A stretch of DNA of 41,022 bases from Candidatus Omnitrophota bacterium (lineage in GTDB: Bacteria > Ratteibacteria > UBA8468 > MWAK01). Numbering within the stretch: the first letter of the stretch is position 1; the number at the start of each line of letters is the position of its first letter. Both the position numbers and the translations under genes were made by a program. The DNA is taken from positions 1 through 41,022 of the forward strand of contig JAZDPL010000035.1 of assembly GCA_043797665.1 (NCBI GenBank), read 5' to 3'. Shown here piece after piece: positions 13,316-39,276 of the stretch. Below the pieces are notes generated by a model. It was not told where the DNA came from. It did no database searches and worked only from the letters and a program-made list of their open reading frames with translations.

Positions 13316-14359
13316 CTAATGGCGGAGGCGCTGGAAGGATTGCCAGAGACTTTTGACACTCTGGTAACGTTTAGGATAATCAATCTTGACCGGATCAACC
13401 TCCACATCTTTTCCTTTAACCTTAACCATCAGGAAGTGGTAATAGCCGCCGCTTTCCTCGGAAAAGTTCAGTAAGGGAGCACCGCCGCCGCCGCTGATAT
13501 ACTCAGTCAAGCCACTCCGGCGGTTAATTCCGAAACGGTGTTCGTGGCCCACAAAGAGGTACTTAACTTTGTAGCGTTTTAATATTTTCTCTAATTTTTC
13601 GCTGTCCCGGAGAGTACCGGGTTGGATTATACCCCGGTAAAGGGGCCGGTGGAGAAAGACAAAAAAGAGACCAGCGTCACTATGAGCCTTCAGGTCCTCT
13701 TCTAACCAGGCAATCTGCTCCTGGCCCAAACTGCTGTGCATACCCGGTACCTTCTCACTACAGAGAACCACAAAGTGGTAACCTTTATGGTCAAAAGAAT
13801 AATAAAGATTCGGCGATATCATCGCCTCATAGACCGGGAATATTTCCGCTTTAGGGATATCATGATTGCCCGCTACTTCATAAACAGGAACAACAAACCT
13901 GGCTTTTTTCTCCTGATAGACAGAGAATTGTTTTCCCTGACTTGCCTGGTCAGCGCTACCAGCAACCTTATCACCCAAATGAACCACAAAGTCAGGCTCA
14001 GGGGTTGTACCACCCTTAAGACTATTGATTTTTTCAATAATTAAGTCGAAGACCGGCGAGACCGGCTCGGCTAAACTCGCTCCCTGGGTATCACCTACCA
14101 CTGCAAAAGACCATTCCTCCGGTATCTCTGCTCCGGCAGATACTGATTTACTAAGTCGCACCTCGCTTCGCTCGGCGCTCTCCAAAGGGAGTTTACACTC
14201 CCTATGGCGGTCACTAACGTTCCCTGTTACCCTCTCTACTACGCAAGGGGGTTCTTCGCCACCCCCTTGGCAATCCCCCCTTGAACCTACTAAGGTATAA
14301 ATTCCTGTAGGTTCAAGGAGGAAACAAATTAAAAATAAAAACCAACCTTTTTTAAACAT
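13316..14359 (-). CDS. Calcineurin-like metallophosphoesterase with a 54-aa insertion in its signal peptide
   Basis: VGDTQ, HLGD, AGNHD, HRP, GHEH motifs; likely start MFKKGW at 14359, since the longer track start runs through a REP doublet. Confidence 0.85.
   Translation of the reverse strand: MFKKGWFLFLICFLLEPTGIYTLVGSRGDCQGGGEEPPCVVERVTGNVSDRHRECKLPLESAERSEVRLSKSVSAGAEIPEEWSFAVVGDTQGASLAEPVSPVFDLIIEKINSLKGGTTPEPDFVVHLGDKVAGSADQASQGKQFSVYQEKKARFVVPVYEVAGNHDIPKAEIFPVYEAMISPNLYYSFDHKGYHFVVLCSEKVPGMHSSLGQEQIAWLEEDLKAHSDAGLFFVFLHRPLYRGIIQPGTLRDSEKLEKILKRYKVKYLFVGHEHRFGINRRSGLTEYISGGGGAPLLNFSEESGGYYHFLMVKVKGKDVEVDPVKIDYPKRYQSVKSLWQSFQRLRH
14153..14316 (-). mobile_element. 162-bp multi-hairpin non-autonomous element, copy 1 (in frame in the CDS)
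   Basis: Differs from 39100-39263 at 7 of 164 aligned positions; flanked by CTT on both sides in the coding strand. Confidence 0.8.
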
Positions 14360-14372
14360 ATATACGAACGAA

Positions 14373-14422
14373 GTAGGGGTTTGATTTATCAAACCCGCGG
14401 GTCGGATAAATCCGACCCCTAC
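14373..14422. repeat. 50-bp GTAG REP doublet
   Basis: GTAGGGGTTTGATTTATCAAACCCGCGGGTCGGATAAATCCGACCCCTAC. Confidence 0.9.
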
Positions 14423-14493
14423 GTTTTTTAAAGACGTTTGTATTTGGTTTGCGTAAGTCAAGATTATTATTATACAATAATCCGGGCTAAAAG

Positions 14494-15654
14494 ATGAAGA
14501 AAGCAGTGGTTTTTGGGGCGGGGAATATTGGCCGGGGGTTCTTAGGTCAGATATTCTTTGAATCCGGTTATGAGATAACCTTTATTGAGGCAATACCAGG
14601 GGTCGTCACCAATCTTAACCGGAAGAAAGCCTACCCGCTCTGGGTCGTTTCCGAAAAAGGTACCGAAAAGTTCGAAATCAGCCGGGTTCAGGCGGTTCCG
14701 GCTGAAGATGAGAAAGCGGTAGCCGGAATCTTAAAAGATGCCGACATCTCGGCTACTGCGGTTGGTGTCAACAACCTTCCCCGTATCTATCCCCTTATCG
14801 CATGCGGGATTGAAGAAAGATTCCGGTCAAAAACCGACGCACCTTTAAATATTATCATCTGCGAAAACCTCCTTTCTGCGGGAAAGGTATTCCGGACCGA
14901 GATTAAAAAGAGGTTATCTCCGGAATTGCATCCCTATTTTGACGAAAAGGTGGGTCTGGTGGAAACGGTGGTCAGCCGGATGGTGCCGCCGGTACCGATA
15001 GATCTGAAAGAGAAAGAACCATTATTGGTCCTGGTGGAACCCTACAAAATCCTGCCGGTAGCCAGGACCGGTTTTAAAGGCGAACTCCCGAAAGTAGCCG
15101 GATTTCATCCGGTCTTGAACATCTCGGCTTACGAGGAACAAAAGTTGTATATCCATAATTTGGGTCATGCAGTCTGTGCGTACTTAGGGTACTTAAAAGG
15201 ATACCGGTATATCCGGGAAGCGGTTGCTGATTCTGAAATTAGCCATCGGCTTACCGGCTGCCTGAACGAAACCGGTACTGCCCTGGTCAAAAAACACCCG
15301 TTCCTCCAGCCGGAACTGCCCGGCCATATCGCCGACCTCCGGCACCGTTTTGCCAATAAGGCTTTAGGAGATACGGTCTGGCGGGTAGGCCGGGAACCAA
15401 TAAGGAAGTTAGGTCCTTCAGACCGATTAGTCGGTGCGCTCCGACTATGTCTAAATTACGGAGTGGAACCGGAAAACTTAATCTTTACGATAGCATCGGC
15501 ACTGTGTTATAATTATAAAGAGGATGGAGAAGCGGCCATCCTGGCAAAAATGATTTTAGAGAATGGTGCCGGCTACGTTCTTCAGGAAGTCTGCAAGATT
15601 AAACCGGAAGAGCCAATCTATAACGCAATCCTGGAAAATTACAATAAACTTTAG
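14494..15654 (+). CDS. mtlD: Mannitol-1-phosphate 5-dehydrogenase family
   Basis: FGAGNIGRGF, TAVG, IICEN, VSRMVP, KLYIHNLGHA, RFAN...RVGREPIRKLGPSDRL. Confidence 0.85.
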   Translation: MKKAVVFGAGNIGRGFLGQIFFESGYEITFIEAIPGVVTNLNRKKAYPLWVVSEKGTEKFEISRVQAVPAEDEKAVAGILKDADISATAVGVNNLPRIYPLIACGIEERFRSKTDAPLNIIICENLLSAGKVFRTEIKKRLSPELHPYFDEKVGLVETVVSRMVPPVPIDLKEKEPLLVLVEPYKILPVARTGFKGELPKVAGFHPVLNISAYEEQKLYIHNLGHAVCAYLGYLKGYRYIREAVADSEISHRLTGCLNETGTALVKKHPFLQPELPGHIADLRHRFANKALGDTVWRVGREPIRKLGPSDRLVGALRLCLNYGVEPENLIFTIASALCYNYKEDGEAAILAKMILENGAGYVLQEVCKIKPEEPIYNAILENYNKL

Positions 15655-15655
15655 A

Positions 15656-15786
15656 TGTCATTCTGAACGTAGCGAAGAATCCGACGTTATTCTGTCGTTC
15701 TGAACGAAGTGAAGAATCTATAGATCCTTCACATTCGTTCAGGATGACACTTCGTGTCAGATCCTTCGTTTACACTCAGGATGACA
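15656..15786. repeat. Cluster of four TGTCATTCTGA-type REPs (two forward, two reverse; BIME-like)
   Basis: TGTCRTTCTGAACG..GAAGAATC twice, then GATCCTTC..TCAGGATGACA twice. Confidence 0.85.
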
Positions 15787-15790
15787 AAAA

Positions 15791-15846
15791 GGCGGGGCGC
15801 GGGTACCCTTACCATAGGATTGGTAAGGGATGAATCCGCCCCCGAC
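15791..15846 (-). repeat. GTCG-variant REP with a nested 24-bp hairpin
   Basis: GTCGGGGGCGGATTCAT-CCCTTACCAATCCTATGGTAAGGG-TACCCGCGCCCCGCC; the inner module recurs partially at 2826-2843. Confidence 0.65.
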
Positions 15847-15856
15847 AAAATATATT

Positions 15857-16894
15857 ATGAAGGCGGCGTTAGTAAGAGGAATTGAGGATTTAGTATACGG
15901 GGACTTTCCCACGCCCTCTCCCGGTAAAGGGGAGATGGTAATCAAGGTAAAAGCCTGCGCGGTCTGTGCTACCGACGTCAAGGTCTATCATTATGGCCAC
16001 CGGCTCATCCAGTTTCCCAGAATCACCGGCCACGAACTGGCCGGAGAGGTAGCCGGCGTCGGTGAAGGAGTAACCGGCTTTGTCCCAGGGGAGCGGGTCC
16101 AGGTGGCCGCCGCCATTCCCTGCGGAGAATGCTACTACTGCCTGCGGGGAATCCAGGCGATGTGCGACGACCTGAAGGCGATCGGTTACCACTATAACGG
16201 TGGTTTTGCGGAATATACTCTCCTGCCGGAACGAATCTTACGCAACGCCTGCGTCAACCGGATTCCGGAAAATCTTTCCTTTGAGGAAGCAGCCCTGGCG
16301 GAACCGTTAGCCTGTGTCATTAACGGACAGGAAATCAGCGGCGTGGGTTTTGGGGACGTGATCGTGGTAATCGGTGCCGGACCCATGGGATGTATGCATA
16401 CCCAGGTGGCAAGAACCAAAGGTGCGCGGAAAGTAATCCTGGCGGACATTGATGAGGCACGGCTGAAAATGGCGTCCTTTACCAAGGCAAACCGGTTTGT
16501 CAATCCCGTCAAAGAAGACATGGTAAAAGCGGTTAAGGAAGAGAATAACAACCGGTTAGCGGACCAGGTTATGGTGGCAGCCGGTTCCGGACAGGCGCAG
16601 ATCCAGGCGCTGCAGTTAGCCGCAAATAGAGGTACGATAAACTTTTTTGGGGGCTTACCAAAAAGTCAGCCAACGGTAACCCTGGATACTAACCTTATTC
16701 ACTACGGAGAACTTAAGGTGGTGGGCACCCACGGTTCTGCGCCAAGACACAATTCTCTGGCTTTAGCGGTCCTGGCTTCCGGTGCGATTAAGGGTACGGA
16801 CTATATCACCAACACTTACCCCCTTTCGAAAATTAAAGAGGCGCTGCAATTTGCAGAAAAGGGACAGGGACTGAAGATTATCGTGAAACCTTAA
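15857..16894 (+). CDS. Zn-dependent alcohol/polyol dehydrogenase (MDR family)
   Basis: VCATD, GHE, CGECYYC..C, EPLAC, GAGPMG; start moved to ATG 15857. Confidence 0.9.
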   Translation: MKAALVRGIEDLVYGDFPTPSPGKGEMVIKVKACAVCATDVKVYHYGHRLIQFPRITGHELAGEVAGVGEGVTGFVPGERVQVAAAIPCGECYYCLRGIQAMCDDLKAIGYHYNGGFAEYTLLPERILRNACVNRIPENLSFEEAALAEPLACVINGQEISGVGFGDVIVVIGAGPMGCMHTQVARTKGARKVILADIDEARLKMASFTKANRFVNPVKEDMVKAVKEENNNRLADQVMVAAGSGQAQIQALQLAANRGTINFFGGLPKSQPTVTLDTNLIHYGELKVVGTHGSAPRHNSLALAVLASGAIKGTDYITNTYPLSKIKEALQFAEKGQGLKIIVKP

Positions 16895-16896
16895 AG

Positions 16897-17005
16897 GTAG
16901 CGGTGCGATTTATCGCACTGTAGTGGCATAAATGCCACCGCTACACCTGTAGGGGTCGGATTTATCCGACCCGAAGATTTCGGGTTCAATAAATTGAACC
17001 CCTAC
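16897..17005. repeat. Two tandem GTAG REP doublets
   Basis: GTAGCGGTGCGATTTATCGCAC..GTGGCATAAATGCCACCGCTAC (16897-16944) and GTAGGGGTCGGA..TTGAACCCCTAC (16949-17005). Confidence 0.88.
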
Positions 17006-17027
17006 ATTTTTGGTTGGAAAGAAGATT

Positions 17028-17996
17028 ATGAAGAAGATAACGAAAGAGGAGGCAAGGCATCTCCTGAAACAAATGATGCAAATCCGGCAGTTTGAAGACG
17101 CCATTATGGACCTTATGGCACGGAATATCGCGGAAGGCGGCTCGCACCTTTATGCGGGGGAAGAAGCGGTGGCGGCCGGAGCAATCTCCGCCATCAGACC
17201 GGACGACTACATCACCAGTACCCACCGGGGCCACGGCCATGCCATCGCCAAGGGCGGCTCGCTGCCCCATTTAATGGCGGAGATTTTAGGCAAGGAGACC
17301 GGGGTCTGCAAGGGAAAAGGCGGGTCTCTCCATCTGGCCGATGTCTCCCAGGGCAACCTGGGTGCCAACGGTGTGGTGGGCGGAAGTATCGGAATCGCCG
17401 CTGGTGCCGGTACATCAATCAAACTGCGGGGCACCGACCAGGTGGTCCTCTGTTTCTTCGGAGACGGCGCCACCAATACCGGTCTCTTCCACGAAGCATT
17501 AAATATGGCCGGGAAATGGAAACTCCCGGTAATTTTCATCTGCGAAAATAATCTGTATGGAATGTCGGTCTCCGTGGAACGCGCCTGCGCGGTGAAAGAC
17601 TTGACCAAGAAAGCGGTTCCCTACGGCATGCCGGCGGAATGCTGCGACGGGATGGATGTGCTGGCGGTAAAAGAGGCAGTGGCAAAGTACGTGGCACCAG
17701 CTCGGAAGGCCGCCGGTCCGGCATTTATTGTCTGCAACACCTACCGCTACTACGGCCATTCCCGCAGCGACCCCAGGGTCTACCGGACCAAAGAAGAAGA
17801 GAAGAAGTGGAAAGACCGTGACTGCATCAGCAGTTTCAGCCGGAAGATGCAGAAAGAAGGCATCCTGACCGAAAAAGAAGTTTCTGACCTGGAAAAAGAG
17901 GTGACCGCAGAACTGGAAGCGGCCATAGACTTTGCCATCAAGAGTCCGGACCCGAAACCGGAAGAACTATACCAGGACGTATATTACGAAACGTAG
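17028..17996 (+). CDS. Pyruvate/acetoin dehydrogenase E1 alpha (TPP-dependent)
   Basis: HLYAGEEA, STHRGHGH, GDGATN..N TPP motif, TYRYYGHSRSDP; start at ATG 17028. Confidence 0.92.
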   Translation: MKKITKEEARHLLKQMMQIRQFEDAIMDLMARNIAEGGSHLYAGEEAVAAGAISAIRPDDYITSTHRGHGHAIAKGGSLPHLMAEILGKETGVCKGKGGSLHLADVSQGNLGANGVVGGSIGIAAGAGTSIKLRGTDQVVLCFFGDGATNTGLFHEALNMAGKWKLPVIFICENNLYGMSVSVERACAVKDLTKKAVPYGMPAECCDGMDVLAVKEAVAKYVAPARKAAGPAFIVCNTYRYYGHSRSDPRVYRTKEEEKKWKDRDCISSFSRKMQKEGILTEKEVSDLEKEVTAELEAAIDFAIKSPDPKPEELYQDVYYET

Positions 17997-18042
17997 GGGC
18001 GCCATTCATGGCGCCCGCGGGCTTGATGAATCAAGCCCCTAC
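17993..18042. repeat. 50-bp GTAG REP doublet overlapping the E1 alpha stop codon
   Basis: GTAGGGGCGCCATTCATGGCGCCCGCGGGCTTGATGAATCAAGCCCCTAC. Confidence 0.9.
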
Positions 18043-18063
18043 GAAAATAAAACAGAGGTTGTA

Positions 18064-19038
18064 ATGAGGGAAATTACTTACCGCCAGGCTCTGAACGAAG
18101 CGCTGGCTGAAGAGATGGAAAAAGACCCGTCGGTCTTTCTGATGGGCGAGGACATCGCCATCTACGGCGGCGCCTACGGTGTAACCTTAAACTTAATGCA
18201 GAAGTTCGGCGAAGAGCGGGTGCGGGACACCGCCATTTCGGAAGCGGCCATTATTGGCGCCGGCTTAGGCGCAGCCATCACCGGAATGCGTCCGGTGGTG
18301 GAGATTATGTACATTGACTTCATGGGTATCTGCCTGGAGCAGATTAACAACCAGGTGGCGAAAATCCGGTATATGTTCGGAGGCAAGACCCGAGTCCCTC
18401 TGGTCATCAGAACCGAAGGCGGAGCAGGCCGGACTCTGGGTGCGCACCACTCCCAGAGTTTAGAATCCTGGTTCATCCACATCCCGGGGCTGAAGGTGGT
18501 AATGCCGGCAACCCCTTACGATGCTAAAGGACTGCTCAAGTCCTCCATCCGGGACGACAACCCGGTGGTCTTCATTGAACACAAAATGCTCTACAATACC
18601 AAGGGACAGGTCCCGGAAGAAGAGTATCTGGTACCCATCGGCAAGGCAGACGTCAAACGGACCGGCAAGGACGTTACCATTATTGCCTATTCCCGGATGT
18701 TACTCTTTGCTCTGGAGGCAGCCAACCGGTTAGCCGGGGAAGGAATTGAGGCTGAGGTCATCGACCCGCGCACCCTTCTTCCGTTAGATATAGAAACAAT
18801 ATCGGAATCAATAAAAAAGACCCACCGGGTCGCGATTGTGGAAGAGGATACCAAAACCGGCGGAACCGGTGCGGAAATAGGGATGCAGATTATGGAAAAC
18901 TGCTTCGACTATTTAGACGCACCGGTCCTGCGAATCGCCGGCGCTGACGTACCGATGCCGAAAAGCCCGGTTCTGGAAAAGTTGGCTATTCCCCAACCGG
19001 AACGCATCTACCGGGAAATTAAAAACATTGTGGAGTAA
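18064..19038 (+). CDS. Pyruvate/acetoin dehydrogenase E1 beta
   Basis: MGEDI, DTAISE, RPVVEIM, GAHHSQSLE, IDPRTL; start at ATG 18064 because the track extension is REP-derived. Confidence 0.92.
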   Translation: MREITYRQALNEALAEEMEKDPSVFLMGEDIAIYGGAYGVTLNLMQKFGEERVRDTAISEAAIIGAGLGAAITGMRPVVEIMYIDFMGICLEQINNQVAKIRYMFGGKTRVPLVIRTEGGAGRTLGAHHSQSLESWFIHIPGLKVVMPATPYDAKGLLKSSIRDDNPVVFIEHKMLYNTKGQVPEEEYLVPIGKADVKRTGKDVTIIAYSRMLLFALEAANRLAGEGIEAEVIDPRTLLPLDIETISESIKKTHRVAIVEEDTKTGGTGAEIGMQIMENCFDYLDAPVLRIAGADVPMPKSPVLEKLAIPQPERIYREIKNIVE

Positions 19039-19041
19039 ACT

Positions 19042-20286
19042 ATGGTAAGAGAAATCATTATGCCCAAACTGGGCGAGACAATGGAAGAGGGTTACCTCAC
19101 CAAATGGTTTAAGGAAGAGGGTCAAAAGGTAGAAAAAGGTGAGGTTGTCTTCGAGGTAATGAGCGACAAGACTAACTTTGAGGTGGAATCGCCTTATTCC
19201 GGATACCTGCGCAAGATTATTGTTCCAGCCAGCGAGAATGCGATTCCGGTAACCTCCGTGGTAGGCTACCTGGCGGATGGGATGGACGAACCGGTGCCGA
19301 CAGTAACACCCCCACCTACACCCTCTTCTTCAGAAGAAAGTAGGGGCTCGATTCATCAAGCCCGCCCCGTAAAAGGCGATAGCCGCCTATACGGGGCCCG
19401 CGGGTCGGATAAATCCGACCCCTACATTACCGCCGAAAAACCTGGCGGCCCCATTATGGCTTCACCCCTGGCGAAAAAGATTGCCAAAGAATTAGGGGTT
19501 GACCTCGCTTCCGTCAAAGGGACAGGACCTGGCGGCAGGATTACGGAAAAGGACGTCCGTTCCGCTGTCAATGTAGCGATGCCCCTGAAACACGTTCAGG
19601 GTATCGCACCAAAAATAGAAGGCGTTACCAAAAAACGCCTTTCCCCTCTGCGCCAGATTATCGCGGAACGTTTAAGCAAGAGCAAGCGCGAAATACCCCA
19701 CTACTACCTCCGAAAGGTGCTGGACGTCTCCTCTCTGGCAGCCGGCCGGAAAAAGTTAAAGGCAGAAGGTCAGGATATTACCTACACCGACCTCTTGATT
19801 AAAGTGGTCGCGGATACCCTGATGGAATTTCCGGAGATGAACGCTACTTATGAGAATAACGAATTGACCGTTTATCCGGAAGTCAACCTGGGTCTGGCGA
19901 TCGCCCGTCCGGAAGGACTTATCGTACCTGTCCTGAAAGGCGTTAACCGGAAAACCCTGCCTGAGATTACCAGGGAACGAAAACGTCTGGTTGAAACCGC
20001 CCGGCAGGATAAATTAGCCAAAGAAGATTTAGAGGGCGGCACCTTTACCCTTTCCAACTTAGGCTTATACGAAATTGACGCCTTCTCGGCCATCATCTAC
20101 CAGCCTCAGGTAGCGATTCTGGCAATCGGCGCCATCAAAGATGGTGTATCTGCCAGCGGCAACAGTCTGGCAATCAAACCTCTGGTAGAGGTTACGTTAT
20201 CCTGCGACCACCGGGTCGTTGACGGTTCCTACAGCGCTCAGTTCCTTCAGAAGTTGCAGGAAAAAATCAACACTATGTCATTCTGA
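19042..20286 (+). CDS. Dihydrolipoamide acyltransferase E2 with a single lipoyl domain
   Basis: MPKLG..MEEG, lipoyl site SDKT, PSBD ASPLAKKIA..GTGPGGRI, catalytic DHRVVDG. Confidence 0.93.
   Translation: MVREIIMPKLGETMEEGYLTKWFKEEGQKVEKGEVVFEVMSDKTNFEVESPYSGYLRKIIVPASENAIPVTSVVGYLADGMDEPVPTVTPPPTPSSSEESRGSIHQARPVKGDSRLYGARGSDKSDPYITAEKPGGPIMASPLAKKIAKELGVDLASVKGTGPGGRITEKDVRSAVNVAMPLKHVQGIAPKIEGVTKKRLSPLRQIIAERLSKSKREIPHYYLRKVLDVSSLAAGRKKLKAEGQDITYTDLLIKVVADTLMEFPEMNATYENNELTVYPEVNLGLAIARPEGLIVPVLKGVNRKTLPEITRERKRLVETARQDKLAKEDLEGGTFTLSNLGLYEIDAFSAIIYQPQVAILAIGAIKDGVSASGNSLAIKPLVEVTLSCDHRVVDGSYSAQFLQKLQEKINTMSF
19340..19425 (+). repeat. GTAG REP doublet with a nested 36-bp hairpin, in frame in E2 linker 1
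   Basis: 50-bp doublet plus GCCCCGTAAAAGGCGATAGCCGCCTATACGGGGCCC; encodes SRGSIHQARPVKGDSRLYGARGSDKSDPY. Confidence 0.9.
19573..19610 (+). repeat. GTAG-headed hairpin in frame in E2 linker 2
   Basis: GTAGCGATGCCCCTGAAACACGTTCAGGGTATCGCACC; encodes VAMPLKHVQGIAP. Confidence 0.65.
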
Positions 20287-20302
20287 GCGGAGCGAAGAAT
20301 CT
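20276..20302 (+). repeat. TGTCATTCTGA-type REP supplying the E2 stop codon
   Basis: TGTCATTCTGAGCGGAGCGAAGAATCT. Confidence 0.85.
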
Positions 20303-20328
20303 AATTCGAACGCATTAAATATTTTGAT

Positions 20329-20378
20329 GTAGGGGTCGGATTTATCCGACCCGCGGGCTTGATAAATCAAGCCCCTAC
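20329..20378. repeat. 50-bp GTAG REP doublet
   Basis: One mismatch to the 5685-5734 copy. Confidence 0.9.
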
Positions 20379-20396
20379 AAGTGATGACAGACACCT

Positions 20397-21071
20397 ATGT
20401 TTCGGATAATTAAAGAGGATATTCAGAGCGTCTTCAGCCGGGACCCGGCCGCGCGCAATATCTTAGAGGTAATTCTATGCTACCCGGGCCTGCACGCCAT
20501 CTGGCTCTACCGGATTAGTCATTTCTTCTGGTGTACCGGCTCCAAAACCTTTGCCCGACTCATCTCACACAAGAGTCGATTCCTCACCGGCATAGAAATC
20601 CATCCGGGTGCCAGAATTGGCAAACGATTCTTCATTGACCACGGAATGGGTGTGGTCATCGGTGAAACGACGGAGATCGGCGACGACGTTCTCCTCTACC
20701 AGGGCGCGGTCCTGGGAGGGACCGCTCTGGAGAAGAAAAAACGCCATCCCACCCTGGGCAACAGGGTTGTGGTAGGCACCGGCGCCAAGGTTTTAGGCCC
20801 GATTACAATAGGGGACGATGCGATGATTGGCGCCGGTTCAGTGGTGGTCAAAGACGTACCGGCCGGTGCCACCGTGGTAGGCGTACCCGGCAGAATAGTG
20901 GAAGAGCACCGCAAAATCAGCCTTGCCCTGGAACACGGAAAACTCCCCGACCCCTTTGCGGAACCCCTGCGCATCCTTTTCCAGGAATGTTCAAAACTCA
21001 ACGAACGTATCCGGAAACTGGAAGAAGAGCTGAAAGCAAAAAAACTCCCTAATGCCGAAACGGATATTTAA
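20397..21071 (+). CDS. cysE: Serine O-acetyltransferase
   Basis: [44 protein letters not shown]. Confidence 0.96.
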
Positions 21072-21768: not shown

Positions 21769-22978
21769 AAATCAGCAGAAATCGAATAATCGACCCTCAA
21801 TTGTGCAGGCATCGCTTGCACAATTGCCATCAACTTACGCAGCAGTGCTGGAAGACATCAAATGCCGAATCCGCACGGCTCAAGTTAAAGCATCCCTTTC
21901 GGTAAACCGGGAATTGATCCGTCTCTATTGGGACGTCGGCAGGATTATCGTCGAAAGGCAACGGAACGAAGGCTGGGGTAAATCGGTAGTCGAGCGGCTC
22001 GCAACGGACATCCAGCAGGAATTTCCAGGCGTCAGCGGGTTCTCGCCCCAGAATATCTGGAAGATGCGCAGTTTCTACATCGCATGGACCGACCAAGTTC
22101 GAAATCTCTCACGGACTGTGAGAGAAATCCACAAACCACAAAATCTCTCACAACTTGTGAGAGAAATGGACGGACGGAACCTGCCGAATGCGGCGGCCGA
22201 AATTCCTTGGGGACATAATACGGAACTTATCTTCAAACTCAAAGACCCTGTTGAGCGCCTCTGGTATGCCCACCAAACCATCGCCAACGGCTGGTCGCGC
22301 TCCATGCTTCTGCATTGGATTGAATCAGGTCTGTACGCCCGCCAGGGTAAGGCCGTCACTAACTTTAAGGCTGTGCTTCCACAGCCCCAATCGGACCTGG
22401 CTGCCGAAGTAATCCGGGACCCCTACAATTTCGATTTTCTCACGCTCCGCACCGACGCCGCCGAACGGGAACTTGAAGAGGGACTGCTCGAACACATCCG
22501 CAAGTTCCTGTTGGAGTTGGGTGCTGGATTCGCCTTCGTGGGACGGCAGGTACCCATTGAGGTAGACGGCGAAGATTTCTACCTTGACCTGCTTTTCTAC
22601 CACCTGCGCCTACGGTGTTTCGTCGTCATTGATCTGAAGACTCGACCTTTCAAGCCCGAGTTTGCAGGTAAGATGAATTCCTACCTTTCGGCTGTGGACG
22701 ATTTGCTGCGACATCCGGACGACAAACCCTCCATTGGCATCATTCTCTGTAAGACCCGCAGCAAGGTTATAGCCGAATACGCTCTGCGCGACCTGGTAAA
22801 ACCCGTAGGTGTTGCCCGCTACGTGACTAAGTTGGTAGAAACTCTGCCCGATAATCTTAAAGATAATCTGCCGACCATCGAACAGATTGAGACGGAACTT
22901 GCCCGTTCGCCGAAGCCACGGGGTGGAAAGCAGAAGGTTGCACAAGAGGGGCGCGATGGTACTTCTAAAAAGCATTAG
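21758..22978 (+). CDS. yhcG: YhcG / DUF1016 PD-(D/E)XK nuclease-domain protein
   Basis: VNRELIRLYWDVG, WGKSVVERLA, GFSPQN, IPWGHN, RDPYNFDFL, ELGAGFAFVGRQ, DLLFYHLRLRC. Confidence 0.92.
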   Translation: MAHKNQQKSNNRPSIVQASLAQLPSTYAAVLEDIKCRIRTAQVKASLSVNRELIRLYWDVGRIIVERQRNEGWGKSVVERLATDIQQEFPGVSGFSPQNIWKMRSFYIAWTDQVRNLSRTVREIHKPQNLSQLVREMDGRNLPNAAAEIPWGHNTELIFKLKDPVERLWYAHQTIANGWSRSMLLHWIESGLYARQGKAVTNFKAVLPQPQSDLAAEVIRDPYNFDFLTLRTDAAERELEEGLLEHIRKFLLELGAGFAFVGRQVPIEVDGEDFYLDLLFYHLRLRCFVVIDLKTRPFKPEFAGKMNSYLSAVDDLLRHPDDKPSIGIILCKTRSKVIAEYALRDLVKPVGVARYVTKLVETLPDNLKDNLPTIEQIETELARSPKPRGGKQKVAQEGRDGTSKKH

Positions 22979-22999
22979 GTGGGCTTATTTTATCGTCAT

Positions 23000-28978: not shown

Positions 28979-29066
28979 TGTCATTCCTGCGCAAGCAGGA
29001 ATCCATCCCTGCTTACTGCATGCAGGGACAGGCCTGGATTCCCGCTTTATGCCTGCGGGAATGACA
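28979..29066. repeat. TGTCATTCC-type REP doublet with a nested 23-bp module
   Basis: TGTCATTCCTGCGCAAGCAGGAATCC..GGATTCCCGC..GCGGGAATGACA with TCCCTGCTTACTGCATGCAGGGA at 29006-29028. Confidence 0.88.
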
Positions 29067-29090
29067 AATAAGCTTCGGGTTTCTTCCCCA

Positions 29091-29891: not shown

Positions 29892-29912
29892 GGATTGTCC
29901 CTATTTCCCAAT

Positions 29913-29969: not shown

Positions 29970-29977
29970 TTATTTTT

Positions 29978-31039
29978 ATGGCCAAGAAGAGGGTGGCGGT
30001 CTTAATGAGCGGCGGGGTTGATTCTTCCGTAGCCGCCTGCCTTTTGAAAGAGGCCGGCTACGAGGTAATCGGTTTTACCCTGCAGTTATGGCCGGCCAGC
30101 AAAGAAAAAGAAATCGGAGGTTGCTGCGGTCTTTCCGCCATCAACGATGCCAAAGCGGTCGCCAAGATTCTGGGAATCCCTCACTATGTCCTGAACTTCC
30201 GGAAAATCTTTGAAAAAGAGGTGATAGAATACTTCTGCCAGACCTACCTCTCCGGTCAGACACCAAACCCCTGCGTGATGTGTAACCGCCGGATTAAGTT
30301 TCTCCATTTCCGGCAAAAAGCACAGGAAATTTCTGCGGACTACATCGCCACCGGCCACTACGCCCGCATCGTCAAATACAAAAGGTCCTACCTCCTGAAA
30401 AAAGGGACCGACCCCAAACGTGACCAGTCCTACTTTCTCTATCACCTTACCCAAAAACAGATGGCTTATACCCTGTTCCCTTTAGGTGCATTGACCAAGG
30501 AAGAGACGCGAAAAAAGGCGCGCTCCTGCGGCTTCCCAAACGCGGAGAAAGAAGGCAGTCAGGAAATCTGCTTCATCCCGGATAACGACTACGGAAGGTT
30601 CATCAGAATGAGGATACCCAGGGCAGAAGAACCCGGCTCTATCTTTAATCAGCAAGGCAAACTCTTAGGCAAACACAAAGGCATCGCCTTTTACACCGTA
30701 GGTCAGCGGGAAGGCCTGGGAATTTCATTTCCCAAGCCGCTTTATGTCCTCCGGATTGACCCTGACCGAAACCGTCTCATCGTCGGCGAAAAAAAGGATG
30801 TTTACCGAAAAGAACTCTTTGCCACCGATATAAACTGGATTGCGGAAAAACCATCTAAACAGATTACCGTAAAAGCACGCATCCGCTACCGGAACCCGGA
30901 GACCCGGGCGACCATCATCCCGCTTGATGAAAACGTTCAGGTAACTCTTGCTAAACCCCAATTTGCCATCACCCCCGGCCAGTCGGTCGTCTTCTACCAA
31001 GGCGAAACCGTCTTAGGCGGCGGCATCATTCAACTATGA
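29978..31039 (+). CDS. mnmA: tRNA 2-thiouridylase
   Basis: MSGGVDSSV, TPNPCVMCN, ATGHYA, DQSYFL, SQEICF, TVGQR, TPGQ. Confidence 0.96.
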   Translation: MAKKRVAVLMSGGVDSSVAACLLKEAGYEVIGFTLQLWPASKEKEIGGCCGLSAINDAKAVAKILGIPHYVLNFRKIFEKEVIEYFCQTYLSGQTPNPCVMCNRRIKFLHFRQKAQEISADYIATGHYARIVKYKRSYLLKKGTDPKRDQSYFLYHLTQKQMAYTLFPLGALTKEETRKKARSCGFPNAEKEGSQEICFIPDNDYGRFIRMRIPRAEEPGSIFNQQGKLLGKHKGIAFYTVGQREGLGISFPKPLYVLRIDPDRNRLIVGEKKDVYRKELFATDINWIAEKPSKQITVKARIRYRNPETRATIIPLDENVQVTLAKPQFAITPGQSVVFYQGETVLGGGIIQL

Positions 31040-31052
31040 TACAATGAAATAG

Positions 31053-32345: not shown

Positions 32346-32348
32346 CCT

Positions 32349-33329: not shown

Positions 33330-33444
33330 ATCCCTAAAAAGTATATCACACCCCCGCTTCTTTTAACAATCAAACCGCCAGTTCCAAAACTAAGGTTAAG
33401 GTTATGGATATTGCCCGGAAATTGGGTTATATCCCGGATATAGT

Positions 33445-33666
33445 TCAGGGAAGGTTTTTGAATTCTTCGGGAGTAATATTAACCGTACGGAGGATGGAGC
33501 GCAATGTACCACGGTCTACTTCGTGATGTGCCGGAACGGTTACCGGAAGACGATATGGGTGATAAAGCCTTATGTGGCTACCTCTCTGTTTCCGCACATA
33601 ATAGCCGATTCGCTGGAGGGCATTTACAATTTCCTGGCCGGATAATAAAGGAAGGACTTCCTTCAT
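33445..33666 (-). CDS. hicA: HicA toxin (mRNA interferase)
   Basis: LQRIGY..QRGSH, VTVPAH, GTLRSIL. Confidence 0.92.
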   Translation of the reverse strand: MKEVLPLLSGQEIVNALQRIGYYVRKQRGSHIRLYHPYRLPVTVPAHHEVDRGTLRSILRTVNITPEEFKNLP

Positions 33667-33878
33667 GCATTAACGAATATTTCCGCCACCCTGGTTACAT
33701 CTTCAGGAATTTTTGCGTGGTCTTCTTTATAACACTCCAGACACAGGGCTATCGCCTCTTTTATATTCTTCTCCGCCTCTTCCATCGTCTTACCCTGAGA
33801 GATACAACCAGGAATCGCCGGACACTCAGCGACGATATATCCATCTTCCCCTTTAAAAAAGATTACCTTGTACTTCAT
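33663..33878 (-). CDS. hicB: HicB antitoxin, short form without DNA-binding domain
   Basis: EDGYIVAECPAIPGCISQGKTMEEA..NIKEAI. Confidence 0.92.
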   Translation of the reverse strand: MKYKVIFFKGEDGYIVAECPAIPGCISQGKTMEEAEKNIKEAIALCLECYKEDHAKIPEDVTRVAEIFVNA

Positions 33879-33962
33879 AATGATTCACCTCGTTCTTGAT
33901 AATACAACAAAAATCGGATAAAAGTCAAAATGTTATTTAGACAAACTTCTATTTTCAGGTCC

Positions 33963-33992
33963 TTGACAAAGTATACCCATTAGTGTATACTT
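33963..33992 (+). promoter_or_regulatory. phd-relE promoter with a palindromic operator
   Basis: TTGACA-17 bp-TATACT; inverted repeat AAGTATAC-N8-GTATACTT (33969-33992); SD AGGAGGTG follows. Confidence 0.8.
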
Positions 33993-34013
33993 AATCTCAG
34001 GAGGTGAGTTTAT

Positions 34014-34292
34014 ATGGTTAACACCATTTCCTTGAAAGAACTGCGGCCGGAATTACCGGGGGTGATAAGGGATATAGACATCAGGTTAGACCGCTTCATT
34101 ATTACTAAAAGAGGCAAACCCACGGCCATAATGATGAGCCTGGACGATTATGAAGGCCTCTTGGAGACAATAGAAATTCTTTCCGATAAAGAGGCGATAA
34201 AAAGAATTAAAAAGGCAAAGCAGCAAATTAAAGAAGGCAAGATTATATCCCTGAAAGAATTGCGTCGTAAAATTGAAAAGGTGGATGTATAA
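34014..34292 (+). CDS. Phd/YefM antitoxin
   Basis: ITKRGKPTAIMMSLDDYEGLLETIEILSD. Confidence 0.92.
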   Translation: MVNTISLKELRPELPGVIRDIDIRLDRFIITKRGKPTAIMMSLDDYEGLLETIEILSDKEAIKRIKKAKQQIKEGKIISLKELRRKIEKVDV

Positions 34293-34545
34293 AATAACCT
34301 TTTCCAATCTGGCAGCAAAAGAATTAGAGGAAATTTACCGGATAGATAAAAAACTATATTCTCGGCTTGTTGCTGCCATAGAAACTCTGGAGATAAATCC
34401 TTATCAAGGGAAACGGCTGAAAGGTAAACTCGCCGGAGACTATTCATTACGCACGGGTAATTATCGTATCATCTATACCATCTATAAAAATACGTTGGTG
34501 GTATGCATCATTGACTTAGGCCATAGAAAAAATATATACCGGTGA
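34285..34545 (+). CDS. relE: RelE/ParE-family toxin
   Basis: YKITFS..A.KEL, GKRLKG.L, YSLRTGNYRIIY, GHRKNIY; start at ATG 34285, overlapping the antitoxin stop. Confidence 0.9.
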   Translation: MYKITFSNLAAKELEEIYRIDKKLYSRLVAAIETLEINPYQGKRLKGKLAGDYSLRTGNYRIIYTIYKNTLVVCIIDLGHRKNIYR

Positions 34546-34547
34546 AA

Positions 34548-34597
34548 GTAGGGGTTCGATTTATCGAACCCGCGGGTCGGATGAATCCGACCCCTAC
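34548..34597. repeat. 50-bp GTAG REP doublet
   Basis: GTAGGGGTTCGATTTATCGAACCCGCGGGTCGGATGAATCCGACCCCTAC. Confidence 0.9.
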
Positions 34598-34645
34598 TAT
34601 TCTTTTGACCGGCGGAAGAAAAATATGGTATAAAGTAATTAAACT

Positions 34646-35221
34646 ATGGTAAAAAAGAAGAAGGTGCTTTTGGGGGTTACCGGAAGTATCGCGGCTTTCA
34701 AGTCGGCGGCTTTAACTTCCCGGCTGGTCAAAAAAGGCTGTCAGGTTAAGGTGGTGATGACCGAAGAGGCAACCCATTTCGTAACACCCCTTACCTTCCA
34801 GACCCTGTCCGGCAATCCGGTCTATCTAAAGATGTTCGGGGAGAACATTACCCCGGGTAATCTGATTACCCCGGAGATTGAACATATCAGTCTGGCAGAA
34901 TGGCCGGATATCATTCTGGTCTGCCCGGCAACCGCCAACATCATCTCCAAGGTGGCTTGCGGTCTGGCGGATGACCTCCTCTCGACTACCATCCTTACCA
35001 CCCGGAAACCGGTGGTTTTCGTTCCGGCAATGAATGCCGGAATGTGGCAGAACCCGATTCTCCGGAAAAGGGTTCAGGAACTGGAAGACCTGGGCTATAA
35101 GTTCATCGGGCCGGTCAAAGGCAGGTTAGCCTGCCGGAAGGAAGGCGTGGGCAGGATGGTTGAGGTGGAAACAGTGGTTAAGGAACTCACCCGAACATTT
35201 TGTCATCCTGAACGGATGTGA
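34646..35221 (+). CDS. coaC: Phosphopantothenoylcysteine decarboxylase, CoaC domain only
   Basis: GVTGSIAAFK, HISLA, PATAN, GLADD, PAMN..MW, G.LAC..G.GRM; ends inside a REP. Confidence 0.88.
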   Translation: MVKKKKVLLGVTGSIAAFKSAALTSRLVKKGCQVKVVMTEEATHFVTPLTFQTLSGNPVYLKMFGENITPGNLITPEIEHISLAEWPDIILVCPATANIISKVACGLADDLLSTTILTTRKPVVFVPAMNAGMWQNPILRKRVQELEDLGYKFIGPVKGRLACRKEGVGRMVEVETVVKELTRTFCHPERM

Positions 35222-35257
35222 AGGATCTATAGATTCTTCGCTCCGCTCAGAATGACA
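35201..35257. repeat. TGTCATTCTGA-type REP doublet
   Basis: TGTCATCCTGAACGGATGTGAAGGATCT-AT-AGATTCTTCGCTCCGCTCAGAATGACA. Confidence 0.88.
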
Positions 35258-35266
35258 TTTTTTAAT

Positions 35267-36460
35267 ATGGGATATTTTTTGACAAAACCGGTGGATTTTA
35301 AGAAACATAACGAAGAGTCTAAACGACTCTGGGAGGCGTACCATAACCGTAAGCCCTACCGAATTCCGGTTGCGGTTGCCGGGAGTATCCGGAACCTCTT
35401 CAGTAATCCGGAGGTGAATAAGACCGGTTATAATTTTGAAGACTTTTTCAAAAACCCCCAGGCACAGATTGAGTGCCAGTTAGCCTTCCAAAAATGGTGG
35501 CGGTATAACATTATTTGCGACAACGAGATGGGTCCACCGGAAAGCGGCTGGCAGATCAACGTTGATTTTCAGAACTCTTATGAGGCGGGCTGGTTCGGTT
35601 GCCTTCTCCGTTACTTCGGAGACGGTGTGCCGGATACGGTGGAAATACTGAAAGAGGAAAAGCGGAAACTCTATGACTTAGAGCCACCCGACCCTTTACG
35701 AGGAAACCTTTTAGGCCGGGCGATGGAGTTCTTTGAATATATGCAAACCCAATGCCCCAAAATGGAGTTTGAAGGCTTGCCGGTAAAACCGCCGGGTACC
35801 ATTCCCGGTGAAGGGACCGATGGCCCTTTTGACGTGGCTTATAAACTCCGGGGAGCGACAGAGGTCTGCCTGGATATGTACGAAGACCCAAAATATTACC
35901 ATGACCTGATGACTTTTGTTACGGAAAATGCCATCCGCCGGATGAAGGCGCTCAGAGAATGGCGCTGGTCTCGCACTCCGGATGCTCCGGATAAAGGTAA
36001 GTTTAAAGTGGCAAATTTTGGCTTTGCCGATGATGCTATCGCTATGCTTTCTACCAAAACGTATCAGGAATTTGTCTTTCCGTACCACAAGAAGTTGGTG
36101 GAAGAGTTCAGCGACGGAGGTCCGGTCAGCATTCACCTGTGCGGTAACTCTACCCGGCATTTCAAGTTTTTAAAGGATAATTTACGGGTAAATTCATTTG
36201 ATACCGGCTTTCCGGTAGATTTCGGGAAAATCCGGAAGGAATTGGGACCAGACGTCCAGATATATGGCGGTCCGACTATTATGCTTTTAAAAAATGGAAC
36301 GCCGGAGGATGTGCGGAAGGAAGTAGCCAGAATCTGCCAGTCCGGGATTATGGAAGGCGGCAGGTTTGTTCTGAGAGAAGGCAACAACTTAGCGCCCGGT
36401 ACACCGGTAGAAAATGTTTCGGCGATGTACGAAGCCGGGAAGGAATTCGGGAGATACTAA
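35267..36460 (+). CDS. Uroporphyrinogen decarboxylase / MtaA-like TIM-barrel protein
   Basis: GPFDVAYKLRG, FADD..MLS..Y.EFVFPY, IHLCG, GRFVLREGNN..TPVEN; start moved out of the REP to ATG 35267. Confidence 0.82.
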   Translation: MGYFLTKPVDFKKHNEESKRLWEAYHNRKPYRIPVAVAGSIRNLFSNPEVNKTGYNFEDFFKNPQAQIECQLAFQKWWRYNIICDNEMGPPESGWQINVDFQNSYEAGWFGCLLRYFGDGVPDTVEILKEEKRKLYDLEPPDPLRGNLLGRAMEFFEYMQTQCPKMEFEGLPVKPPGTIPGEGTDGPFDVAYKLRGATEVCLDMYEDPKYYHDLMTFVTENAIRRMKALREWRWSRTPDAPDKGKFKVANFGFADDAIAMLSTKTYQEFVFPYHKKLVEEFSDGGPVSIHLCGNSTRHFKFLKDNLRVNSFDTGFPVDFGKIRKELGPDVQIYGGPTIMLLKNGTPEDVRKEVARICQSGIMEGGRFVLREGNNLAPGTPVENVSAMYEAGKEFGRY

Positions 36461-36462
36461 GG

Positions 36463-37836
36463 ATGGGGTTACAGGCATTTTCGTTGGAACCAAAGGTATT
36501 CCCTGCGGTGGAGACGCCTTTCCGCCGGGTCAGGACCAAAATACCGGTACCGGAATCGGTGCCTTTCTTCCGGAAACTCCGGGCTTCTGAACCCCGGTCA
36601 ATGCATTGTGAACCCCCGGTCATCTGGGAAAAAGCCCGCGGGGTTAATGTTTTTGACCCTTACGGAAATAAGTGGCTGGACTGGAGTTGCGGGGTACTGG
36701 TTACCAACGCCGGTCACAACCATCCTAAAATAATCTCTGCGCTCCAGGACTATCTTGAAAAAGGGGGACCGCTCCACTCTTATATCTTTGCCAATCAGGC
36801 CCGGGCTAAATTAGTGGAGAAATTACTCAGTATCGTACCCAGGGAATTAGACCGGGTCTTTCTCCTTACCACCGGCTCGGAGGCGGTGGAGGTGGCGCTC
36901 AAAGTGAGCCGGACCGCCGGCATCAGGCAGAACCCAAAAAAACGTTACGTAATCAGTTTTGAAGGCGGTTTCCACGGCCGGACCTATGCCTCCCAGTTGG
37001 CCGGCGGTGCCTTAGGGGGCGGCGAATGGGTGGACCGGAACCCTTACTTTGTTCCGGTGCCTTTTCCGGGCAGTATTGAAACGAAGGACAAGTCCTTTTC
37101 CCTCTTTGAAAAGAGTCTGCAGGACGCCGGCATCAAACCCGACGAGGTCTCTGCGGTAATTTCCGAGACCTTCCAGGGCAGGGAAGGTAAATTGATGCCG
37201 AAAGAGTACGCAGTATCATTGCGGGAATGGTGTAACCTTTATCAGGCGGCTTTAATCTTTGATGAGGTCCAGGCCGGCTTTGGCCGAACCGGTAAACTAT
37301 TCGGGTTTGAACACTGCGGTGTGGTGCCGGACCTGTTTGTCTGCGGTAAAGGAATATCCAGTTCCTTACCCTTATCTGCAGTCATCGGCAAAAGTACCTA
37401 TTTGGACCTCTATGAACCCGGTGAGATGACCAGTACCCATACCGGCAGCCCTTTACCGGCAGTAGCCGCCTTAGCCAGCATTGAAACCATTTTAGAAGAG
37501 AACCTGGTTGAGAACGCAGACCGGTTAGGAAAGTATTTACGGGAACAACTGAAGAAAATAACCGCTCCTTATCAGAACCGGATTGACGTGGGCGGCTGCG
37601 GCCTGGTAGCCGGTATGCTCTTTTTTCAGGACCGGCAAAGCCTTAAACCAGACCCGGAGAGCGCCTTCCGGTTCTGCGAGTCTGCGGTCGGCAGCGGGAA
37701 CCTTTTCTTCGCACCGGTAGGAAAAGGAAGAGGCACGATAAAATTCTGCCCGCCGCTTTGCATTACCAGGGAGGCAATTGACGACGGTATTTACGGCACC
37801 CGCGGCCTGGCAGAAATTATAAAGGAAGTAATGTAG
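36463..37836 (+). CDS. Class III PLP aminotransferase
   Basis: DPYGNKWLD, GHNHP, TGSEAVE, FHGRT, FDEVQAGFGRTG, PD...GKG. Confidence 0.92.
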   Translation: MGLQAFSLEPKVFPAVETPFRRVRTKIPVPESVPFFRKLRASEPRSMHCEPPVIWEKARGVNVFDPYGNKWLDWSCGVLVTNAGHNHPKIISALQDYLEKGGPLHSYIFANQARAKLVEKLLSIVPRELDRVFLLTTGSEAVEVALKVSRTAGIRQNPKKRYVISFEGGFHGRTYASQLAGGALGGGEWVDRNPYFVPVPFPGSIETKDKSFSLFEKSLQDAGIKPDEVSAVISETFQGREGKLMPKEYAVSLREWCNLYQAALIFDEVQAGFGRTGKLFGFEHCGVVPDLFVCGKGISSSLPLSAVIGKSTYLDLYEPGEMTSTHTGSPLPAVAALASIETILEENLVENADRLGKYLREQLKKITAPYQNRIDVGGCGLVAGMLFFQDRQSLKPDPESAFRFCESAVGSGNLFFAPVGKGRGTIKFCPPLCITREAIDDGIYGTRGLAEIIKEVM

Positions 37837-37884
37837 GGGTCGGATTTATCCGACCCGCGCGGGCGCGATAAATCGCGCCCCTAC
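37833..37884. repeat. GTAG REP doublet supplying the aminotransferase stop codon
   Basis: GTAGGGGTCGGATTTATCCGACCCGCGCGGGCGCGATAAATCGCGCCCCTAC. Confidence 0.9.
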
Positions 37885-37887
37885 TTT

Positions 37888-39111
37888 ATGCAAAACGACG
37901 ACATCCGGGAATTTCTGGAAGGCAAGAAGGCGGAGGCGGCTGAATTCCTGTCCGAATTGATTCGGTTTCCCAGCATCTCCGGAGAAGACGAACGGGAAAT
38001 CCAGGATTTCCTGGCGGACAAATTCCGAAATTTAGGCCTGGAAGTAAAATTGGAACTGATGCCTCCCGGAATCAAAGACCACCCCGCTTATACCCGGGCA
38101 GACAAGGAATTAGATTACCGGAGCCGACCAAACCTCTATGCTACCCTTAAAGGTGAAGGGAACAGTTCTGTAATTCTATGCGCCCACTGTGATGTGGTTC
38201 CACCAGGTGACTGGCCGGAAGCCTTTACTCCGGTCATTAAAGACGACCGGGTTATCGGCCGGGGTGCGGCAGACGATAAGGGACATATTACCAGCATCTA
38301 TTACGCTCTCTTAGCCTTGAAAGAACTACATCTTAAATCCAAAAAAATGGCTAAGGTTCAGGTTGTAATTGAAGAAGAGGTTGGTGGCAACGGTGCCCTG
38401 GGCACTATTCTTTCCGGTCATCAGGCTGACGGTGTCATCGTCTTAGAATCAACCGACTTAGCCATCTGTCCGGCTAACCGGGGTGCGGTCTGGTACAAGA
38501 TTGAGGTAACCGGCAAACCGGTCCATATGGGCAGAATCCGGGAAGGGGTCAATGCGGTGGAGAAGATGGCGGAAATAATGAAAGAACTCCGGCGTTACGA
38601 AACCAAACTGATTGCCGAGAGCGACCACCCCCTGTTCCGGGAGTACGAACAACCGGTCCAGGTCAATATCGGAATAATTAAAGGTGGAGACTGGCCAAGT
38701 ATGGTGGCTGGCTGGTGTGAAATGGAAGGCGGGGTGGGATTTCTTCCGAATAAAGAACTGCCTCAGATACAAGAAGATTTGCATCAGTTGCTGGCAAACT
38801 TTCCGGACCCCTGGATTCAGGAGCACAGCCGGGTCTCTTTTCCGAAACTCCATAACGACGCCTACGAAACTCCGGTAAGCGACCCGCTGGTTACCGGTTT
38901 AACCGAAGCGGTCAGCGAATCCGGTTTGAACCCAAAAATTACCGGTTTTATCGTAAGCTGCGACGCCCGGCTCTATGCCAGGGTCGGCAAGATGCCCACC
39001 GTGGTCTTCGGCGCCGGTTCCATCAAAGAGGCGCACAGCCGAAGTGAAAGTATCTCCATTCCCGAAGTTCTGAAGGTTTCTGAAGTACTGACCCGGTATT
39101 TGAACCTATAG
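37888..39111 (+). CDS. M20-family amidohydrolase (ArgE/DapE-like)
   Basis: AHCDVVP, GRGAADDKG, EEEVGGNG, GVNA, CDAR, AHS..E. Confidence 0.9.
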   Translation: MQNDDIREFLEGKKAEAAEFLSELIRFPSISGEDEREIQDFLADKFRNLGLEVKLELMPPGIKDHPAYTRADKELDYRSRPNLYATLKGEGNSSVILCAHCDVVPPGDWPEAFTPVIKDDRVIGRGAADDKGHITSIYYALLALKELHLKSKKMAKVQVVIEEEVGGNGALGTILSGHQADGVIVLESTDLAICPANRGAVWYKIEVTGKPVHMGRIREGVNAVEKMAEIMKELRRYETKLIAESDHPLFREYEQPVQVNIGIIKGGDWPSMVAGWCEMEGGVGFLPNKELPQIQEDLHQLLANFPDPWIQEHSRVSFPKLHNDAYETPVSDPLVTGLTEAVSESGLNPKITGFIVSCDARLYARVGKMPTVVFGAGSIKEAHSRSESISIPEVLKVSEVLTRYLNL

Positions 39112-39263
39112 GAATTTATATCTTAGTAGGTTCAAGGGGGGATTGCCAAGGGGGTGGCGAAGAACCCCCTTGCTCAGTAGAGAGGGTAACAGCGAACGTT
39201 AGTGACCGCCATAGGGAGTGTAAACTCCCTTTGGAGAGCTCCGAGCGAAGCGAGGGGCGACTT
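39100..39263 (+). mobile_element. 162-bp multi-hairpin element, copy 2
   Basis: Near-identical to 14153-14316 (inverted); TTGAACCTATA repeats at 39100 and 39262, 162 bp apart; contains the M20 gene TAG. Confidence 0.8.
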
Positions 39264-39276
39264 GAACCTATAAAAG

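Follow-up and report, generated by a model that had tools for sequence, protein, structure and literature searches.

The window analysed here, the whole 41,022-nucleotide (nt) stretch of contig JAZDPL010000035.1 from a Candidatus Omnitrophota bacterium, carries two full copies of a multi-hairpin repeat, the type-A element, whose nature and movement are considered below. One copy lies at 39102..39263 on the plus strand, runs for 162 nt from GAACC to GACTT, and provides with its left end the last codons and the stop codon of an M20 peptidase gene (37888-39111). The other, at 14153..14314 on the minus strand, likewise measures 162 nt, or 54 codons, and is situated in frame within the gene for a calcineurin-like metallophosphoesterase (PF00149; 13316..14359, minus strand, with the ATG at 14359 as the chosen start), where it adds 54 amino acids directly after the hydrophobic N-terminus of the enzyme. 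A sequence-only reading of this DNA had described two near-identical copies with 7 differences and one stop-free frame, and this was reproduced by a gapless alignment of 164 nt (14153-14316, minus strand, and 39100-39263, plus strand) with exactly 7 substitutions and one reading frame without stops through both copies. The repeat it delimited stands, except that the TT at its start either belongs to the target or is shared with the right end, leaving an element proper of 162 nt. A 25-nt match at 5750 had been taken for a fragment; the match is present (5750-5774), and is instead the left end of a separate, 129-nt element (5644..5772, minus strand) that shares the same left end and carries as cargo a doublet of GTAG-type repetitive extragenic palindromes (REPs) and a nested CCCTAC hairpin. 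This element terminates in TTACTT, preceding the TTGACG-N17-TAAAAT promoter of a zinc-ribbon gene.

Additional copies were found by BLAST in the organism's own genome (G000; 2.69 Mb, 86% complete). The left-end 18-mer has 23 matches there at two or fewer mismatches and 28 at three or fewer, versus 2 in shuffled sequence, and the 23 left ends divide into 12 full type-A copies, one partial type-A copy, six of type B, three of type C, and one that runs into other DNA. Type A denotes the full multi-hairpin copies, of 135-238 nt; in type B (n=6, including 5644-5772) the left end continues into a GTAG-REP doublet, and in type C (n=3) into C-rich hairpins. Three or more kinds of cargo share one left end. 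Outside G000, the type-A element or at least one of its ends was detected in G001, G009, G013 and G015 (the last with a right end only), the tally being 5 of 41 relatives by BLAST and 4 of 65 phylum genomes by pattern; a looser census of right ends was discarded as insufficiently specific. Small hairpins of 22-24 nt, of the CCCTACCATCAAGGTAGGG, CCAACCCTTGGTTGG and CTCCATC..GATGGAG types, are nested in type-A copies at recurring positions, as in the G000 copies on C56, C79:57277, C89:38683, C49:7117 and C72.

Movement of the repeat is evident from unoccupied sites. Contigs from two other sequencing runs (X1 and X2) are empty at the metallophosphoesterase gene and join window position 14152 to 14316; in X1 one letter stands between the two, giving a net difference of 162 nt and the gene-strand codons CTC CTG AGT AAA. 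Run X1 also lacks 5647-5803, the type-B site. The copy on contig C30 of G000 is absent in a sister genome (G001), and G001:C4 is occupied where G000:C38 has just one CTTGACA, accompanied by a -10 box; in addition, an insert of ~105 nt in G001:C5 is missing from G000:C16. A clean empty site was not obtained at the G001 orthologues of the copies at 39102, C72 and C92:73386, which are diverged or contain other repeats. The mnmA gene of the sister genome contains an in-frame type-C element (G001:C15:9137; L037) in place of a short stretch of the window's mnmA (29978-31039); this was rejected as empty-site evidence, being a replacement rather than a clean empty site. The repeat is real, and it is mobile.

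Two of the empty sites are informative about the position of the cut. The sequence AGT stands both behind the element at 14153 and in the empty allele there; behind the C30 copy stands TACGA, where the empty allele has TTTACGA. If divergence common to both alleles is set aside, cleavage after CTT can be reconciled with the 14153 site by one synonymous change and with the C30 site by none, whereas cleavage after CTTG would call for three changes at the former and two at the latter. Because the CTT cut needs fewer changes at both sites, the left G would belong to the element and the right base to the host, with the cut falling anywhere within the TT, an assignment of moderate strength given that the relatives compared are ~90-95% alike.

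The junctions were tabulated as 23 rows from G000 and six type-A rows from relatives; for types B and C the right end was picked by eye, and the six rows from relatives had been retrieved with TTG-containing patterns. In this table 26 of 28 left flanks read YTT; 25 of 28 have CT ahead of TG or G, the other three being TTT. The first base of the element is G in 28/28 (22/22 in G000, where the search pattern excluded the flank), the element terminates in TT in 27/27, and the following base is G in 24/27. Left and right flanks are unlike within copies (TTTG versus CTTG, CTTG versus CTTA), so there is no 4-bp duplication, although a 2-nt duplication of TT is possible. Neither terminal inverted repeats nor a consistent duplication was seen at the junctions examined, and the repeat does not fit a classical miniature inverted-repeat transposable element (MITE) of the DDE kind, which has terminal inverted repeats and a target-site duplication of fixed length.

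The left end itself (39102..39120 on the plus strand; opposite strand TATAAATTCCTATAGGTTC) resembles the origin of an IS91-type insertion sequence (IS), with TAAATTCCTAT in common with the oriIS of IS91 (L077). The IS91 end reads ATTTAAATTCCTATCGAT and then GAAC; on the opposite strand the 39102 copy reads ATATAAATTCCTATAGGTT and then CAAA, and the end at 14314 reads TATAAATTCCTGTAGGTT and then CAAG. The left-end box of the element is TAAATTCCT; in the 39102 copy it is identical to that of IS91 at 11/11 nt, most other copies having TAAATTCCTGT, and the 11-mer TAAATTCCTAT has only four occurrences in the 2.69-Mb genome. The origins of ISCR1 and ISCR27, as given in PMC13023784 and PMC8894482, contain TTCCTATA. 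The account of the IS91 family in PMC13181058 describes elements that make no target-site duplication, have a CTTG/GTTC target beside oriIS, and carry a palindrome beside the terIS cut. At the repeat studied here a TTCCTA(T/A) box lies near one end, the target is CTTG-like with neither target-site duplication nor terminal inverted repeats, and a terIS-type palindrome stands beside a target-like site, this being in type A the fifth hairpin followed by ACTT(G). Types B and C (right ends by eye) and a further family, D, have other hairpins, followed by CTT(G). The left end thus largely matches the end of a known IS, an outcome that the sequence-only reading had set against its own view of the repeat as unrecognised.

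Family D was recovered with a covariance model built from type A and run on the phylum genomes, which gave weak full-length matches in five more genomes (E 1e-7 to 1e-4). Its members are ~145 nt long and have the same hairpin order and hairpin-3 core as type A with variable cargo, a TTGAAATTCCGAT box at the canonical 4-nt gap from CAAG, and a right end TATCTT(G). They are present in 13 of the 65 phylum genomes (G018, G023, G051, G052, G061 and others; loci L189-L244, L253 and L259-L263), with CTTG in 11 of 28 listed rows (four of these being false rows) and G after the right CTT in 14/19.

The repeat is probably gene-less mobile DNA, a non-autonomous rolling-circle element of the IS91 type whose HUH transposase, of the Y2 class, would be supplied from elsewhere. 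The proposal of a non-autonomous HUH-mobilised element, which the sequence-only reading had offered as one of two options, is supported in this form, and is narrowed to the IS91/ISCR type by the origin box, the YTTG target, the far-end hairpin, the lack of terminal inverted repeats and target-site duplications, and the empty sites. As modelled on that family, the enzyme would bind the TAAATTCCTRT box and nick the strand reading CTT^GAACC; the nicked strand would be displaced as single-stranded DNA, on which hairpins with GNA loops would fold; a second cut would follow the last hairpin, at GACTT^, and the strand, or a circle made from it, would be joined to a chromosomal YTT^G site.

A circular form bears on one further observation. 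Directly after the element at 39102..39263 stands GAACCTATA (39264..39272, plus strand), which is identical to the element's first 9 nt and is either an origin-end-like target or the remnant of a head-to-tail junction. The arrangement GACTT-GAACCTATA at 39259-39272 is suggestive only as regards a single-stranded circle with an ori-ter junction, such as the circle intermediate described for the IS91 family (PMC13181058). The same sequence would also suit a core-dinucleotide recombinase, IS110-like or a tyrosine recombinase, for which TT would be the shared core and a circle junction GACTT-GAAC would resemble the target CTT-GAC: TT is present at both junctions, crossover could occur anywhere within it, and in two copies (39264 and L030) the first 6-9 nt of the element recur after its end. 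Such an enzyme is nonetheless improbable in light of the IS91 origin box, the canonical spacing of family D and the joining of one invariant end to modular cargo; none of the copies fetched has a recombinase of this kind next to it, no genome search aimed at IS110 genes having been made.

The type-A element folds strongly, 39095-39280 of the plus strand doing so better than 200/200 shuffles (z -3.9 as DNA, -5.1 as RNA), and all the hairpins listed by the sequence-only reading were found in the sequence. Hairpin 1 (39099..39136, plus strand, as are those that follow) has 11 bp, and its 5' arm begins three bases ahead of the element; in a circle, these bases would be supplied by the element's own right end. 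Hairpin 2 (39147..39172) has a G5/C5 stem with covariation at two pairs. Hairpin 3 (39192..39207) has a short stem with GA/GA mismatches and GCG-N-AGC loops in other copies, and covaries; a Microviridae-like contig (single-stranded DNA phage; L248:1922-1941) has the same GGGAGCGATAGCGACCG motif among several GCGAAGC-type motifs, the hairpin-3 motif being all that it has in common with the element. Hairpin 4 (39209..39234) has a GTAA loop and an A-T/G-C covariation divided 6 versus 7 over 13 rows. Hairpin 5 and the terminal GACTT (39238..39263) form a terminator-like end, to which a terIS-like role may be ascribed by analogy with IS91 as described in PMC13181058.

Pairing was compared over 13 related type-A copies, 5 of 18 having been left out because of a deletion or nested insertions: it holds in 92% of cells, and 8 of 36 pairs vary in both partners. 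The covariation score is reached by 0/500 shuffles, and controls in which the structure was slid gave 0-1 pairs. The compensatory change that had been put forward as key evidence is not among these pairs. The supposed swap of G.T to T.G dissolves once four other G000 copies (C45, C88, C20 and C72) and L064 are considered, since they read GCTCC...GGTGC; the consensus is a T.T mismatch from which each window copy departs by one separate single change. The argument from covariation survives at other pairs. Two C/T changes in hairpin 1 had been called wobble-compatible; this holds for position 10 (a T.G wobble in the main stem), and position 22 lies in the loop. Better folding of the top strand (18/18 copies) was rejected as evidence, being compositional, as shuffles give 168/180. 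The 18 copies contain 26 triloops of the form xC-GNA-Gx, where shuffles give 4.2; one and the same site has GAA, GTA or GGA depending on the copy, and d(GNA) loops with C:G closure are described as very stable in DNA (PMC3201870).

Such folding and covariation, together with loops (GTAA, GAAA) that are GNRA-compatible, are also what would be expected of a structured non-coding RNA that had been duplicated or retro-copied, the second option of the sequence-only reading. We consider this very improbable. Rfam gave nothing at gathering score in the window, the best E over the element being 0.73; copies occur in both orientations and within genes and promoters; the left end is common to unrelated cargo; the stems are interrupted by nested hairpin insertions; the triloops are of the DNA type; and no reverse transcriptase was seen near the copies.

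The REP doublets of type B raise another candidate, namely that the genome's own REP-associated Y1 HUH nuclease (RAYT) moves the element by cutting CT^TG, the IS91-like box being a relic or a coincidence. G000 has a RAYT-like gene (L002; G000:C47:11054-11800) of 143 amino acids that is flanked by GTAG REP doublets, matches NF047646 at 63 bits, below the cut-off of 80, and has a degenerate left-end-like motif upstream; the genome holds ~494 GTAG REP halves; and TnpA-REP enzymes are described as cutting after CT (PMC8266576), a cut that at CT^TG fits both empty sites. On the other hand, the left end is on only 6 of the 494 REP halves, types A and C and family D have no REP, nor are their ends GTAG-footed palindromes, and the upstream motif is missing in the G001 orthologue. 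Three of 28 left flanks are TTT, and changing CT to TT abolished cleavage in the experiments reported in PMC8266576. Y1 matches occur in 12 of 17 carriers of the element, but also in 26 of 48 non-carriers, and a constant non-palindromic end that matches the IS91 box is no REP feature. Movement by the RAYT is accordingly judged unlikely, if somewhat less so than movement by a core recombinase.

For the IS91-type transposase that the favoured interpretation calls for, G000, the 41 relatives and the 65 phylum genomes, all of them incomplete metagenome-assembled genomes (MAGs), were searched with the Y2_Tnp and Zn_Tnp_IS91 profiles, with 0/14 controls positive and G008 found at E 2e-59. Insertion sequences are often unassembled in MAGs. 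A tblastn search of G000 with two IS91-type proteins gave a best E of 0.36. Scans for the origin motif returned 13 loci in genome contigs, four of them true copies, and 19 loci in metagenome contigs; in viral contigs there were chance matches or none, and 20 solo origin-like sites in relatives have no transposase beside them. In a BLAST search of plasmids the element was unmatched and its end had only chance matches. On contig C237 of G008 (L013) lies a complete-looking pair of a tyrosine recombinase and an IS91-type Y2 transposase.

Several results weigh against an IS91-type element. Neither profile has a match in G000 or in any of the 17 carriers, incomplete as these MAGs are; the sole matches in the 65 phylum genomes are in G008 and G043, neither of them a carrier. 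The ends of the integrase and Y2 element in G008 are unlike those of the repeat, and no transposase stands beside copies among the loci fetched. The gap from box to tetranucleotide is 4 nt in all 17 distinct IS91-family rows compared (ISMno24, L081 and L013 being without such a box, and five further rows without the tetranucleotide) and 5 nt in type A, which therefore lacks the exact 4-nt gap with a CTTG^/GTTC^ cut, although family D has the 4-nt gap. Both informative empty sites favour a cut before the G (CTT^G), and IS91 cuts after it. The copies, moreover, are related, so that the triloop and covariation counts overstate independence. Strict membership of IS91 fails on spacing and cut register. 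We tentatively entertain, as a possibility well short of the favoured one, an undescribed rolling-circle HUH transposase that has kept the IS91 box and nicks one base earlier (CTT^G), with an aim for CTTGAC that regenerates -35 boxes, an internal arm pairing across the circle junction, recruitment of any genomic hairpin repeat as terminator, and composite repeats throughout the phylum.

The positions of surviving copies suggest how insertion of the IS91-type element may be rendered harmless. TTGAC follows 11 of 27 right ends, versus a background of 1.3% of YTT sites, and seven of those 11 have a -10 box (two or fewer mismatches, at 16-18 nt) against a background of 16%; as this background is genome-wide, the figure exaggerates the enrichment among survivors in intergenic DNA. 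A CTTGAC -35 box that receives the element keeps an unbroken TTGAC on the downstream side, owing to the CTT at the element's end. Of 21 two-ended G000 copies, 14 have a length divisible by three; four copies are in frame in long open reading frames (14153, C8 and two on C92) that are open also without the element, and one further copy is probably in frame as well. Such a bias would be consistent with selection on survivors inside genes. The copy on C72 (L047; G000:C72:31140-31327), of 185 nt, lies out of frame between rpmE and prfA; it forms the rpmE stop codon and provides a GTG in the prfA frame that is likely to serve as the prfA start. G001 and G002 have instead an ATG that lies upstream and overlaps rpmE. 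Harmlessness would thus be reached by restored -35 boxes, by in-frame insertion and, at one copy, by supply of a stop and a likely start codon.

The window holds further repeats and genes of note. A REP-like palindrome lies in frame (8704-8778) within the prolyl-tRNA synthetase gene (8512-9705, minus strand), and X1 and X2 have 33 other letters instead of these 75. Two more palindromic families, of the GTCATTCCCGC..GCGGGAATC and GTCATTCTGAGCG..AAGAATCT types, occur at 2790-2821, 4154-4221, 10925-10960, 15655-15749, 20275-20301, 29005-29066 and 35201-35258, and a duplicated 27-nt palindromic repeat lies within a DUF1016/YhcG gene (22102-22167). DarT (PF14487) followed by a Macro-domain gene (754-2484, minus strand) forms a DarTG-type toxin-antitoxin pair. 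The cstA gene (5911-6996, minus strand) is truncated and split into two open reading frames, and contigs of X1 and X9 have 403 extra letters at 5931-5935.

Among known systems, the Rickettsia palindromic elements are similar in being hairpin repeats of ~150 bp that lie in frame in genes; they differ in that PMC10969869 describes no IS91-type ends for them, in the portion available, and in that most copies here are intergenic. The available part of that MITE review carries no mention of IS91, and a literature search (mostly openly readable articles, without supplements) found no natural two-ended, multiplied IS91-type miniature. The REP/REPIN repeats and their TnpA-REP (RAYT), as presented in PMC8266576, share single-stranded DNA hairpins, HUH chemistry, a CT-containing junction and, in type B, the REP doublets; the constant non-palindromic origin end, and types A, C and D without REP, set the present element apart. 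Closer are the miniature right-end derivatives of IS801 in Pseudomonas syringae (229, 360 and 679 nt), which PMC3189936 reports to be gene-less, to possess the origin end, and to move with transposase in trans, stopping at a target-like tetranucleotide. In that account each arises anew from the full IS by continuous truncation and has no ter palindrome, whereas the present element has two ends and has given rise to a diverged, multi-copy family, for which no parent IS was found.

The closest likeness is to IS91, IS801, IS1294 and the laboratory mini-IS91, as summarised in PMC13181058: all have asymmetric ends, the TAAATTCCTAT box near CAAG/CTTG, a far-end palindrome and no target-site duplication, and the size of the element is near that of the minimal mini-IS, a working version of which consists of 89 bp of terIS and 82 bp of oriIS. 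The element differs from these systems in having no tnpA, a gap of 5 rather than 4 nt, a cut apparently at CTT^G, and an interior of swappable hairpin modules. A divergent HUH transposase is suggested by the displaced cut and by the failure to find the enzyme, and covariation marks which hairpins matter in what would be a natural two-ended IS91-type miniature. The repeat is best read as a known kind of genome parasite in a new form, made of DNA, and not as a novel RNA.

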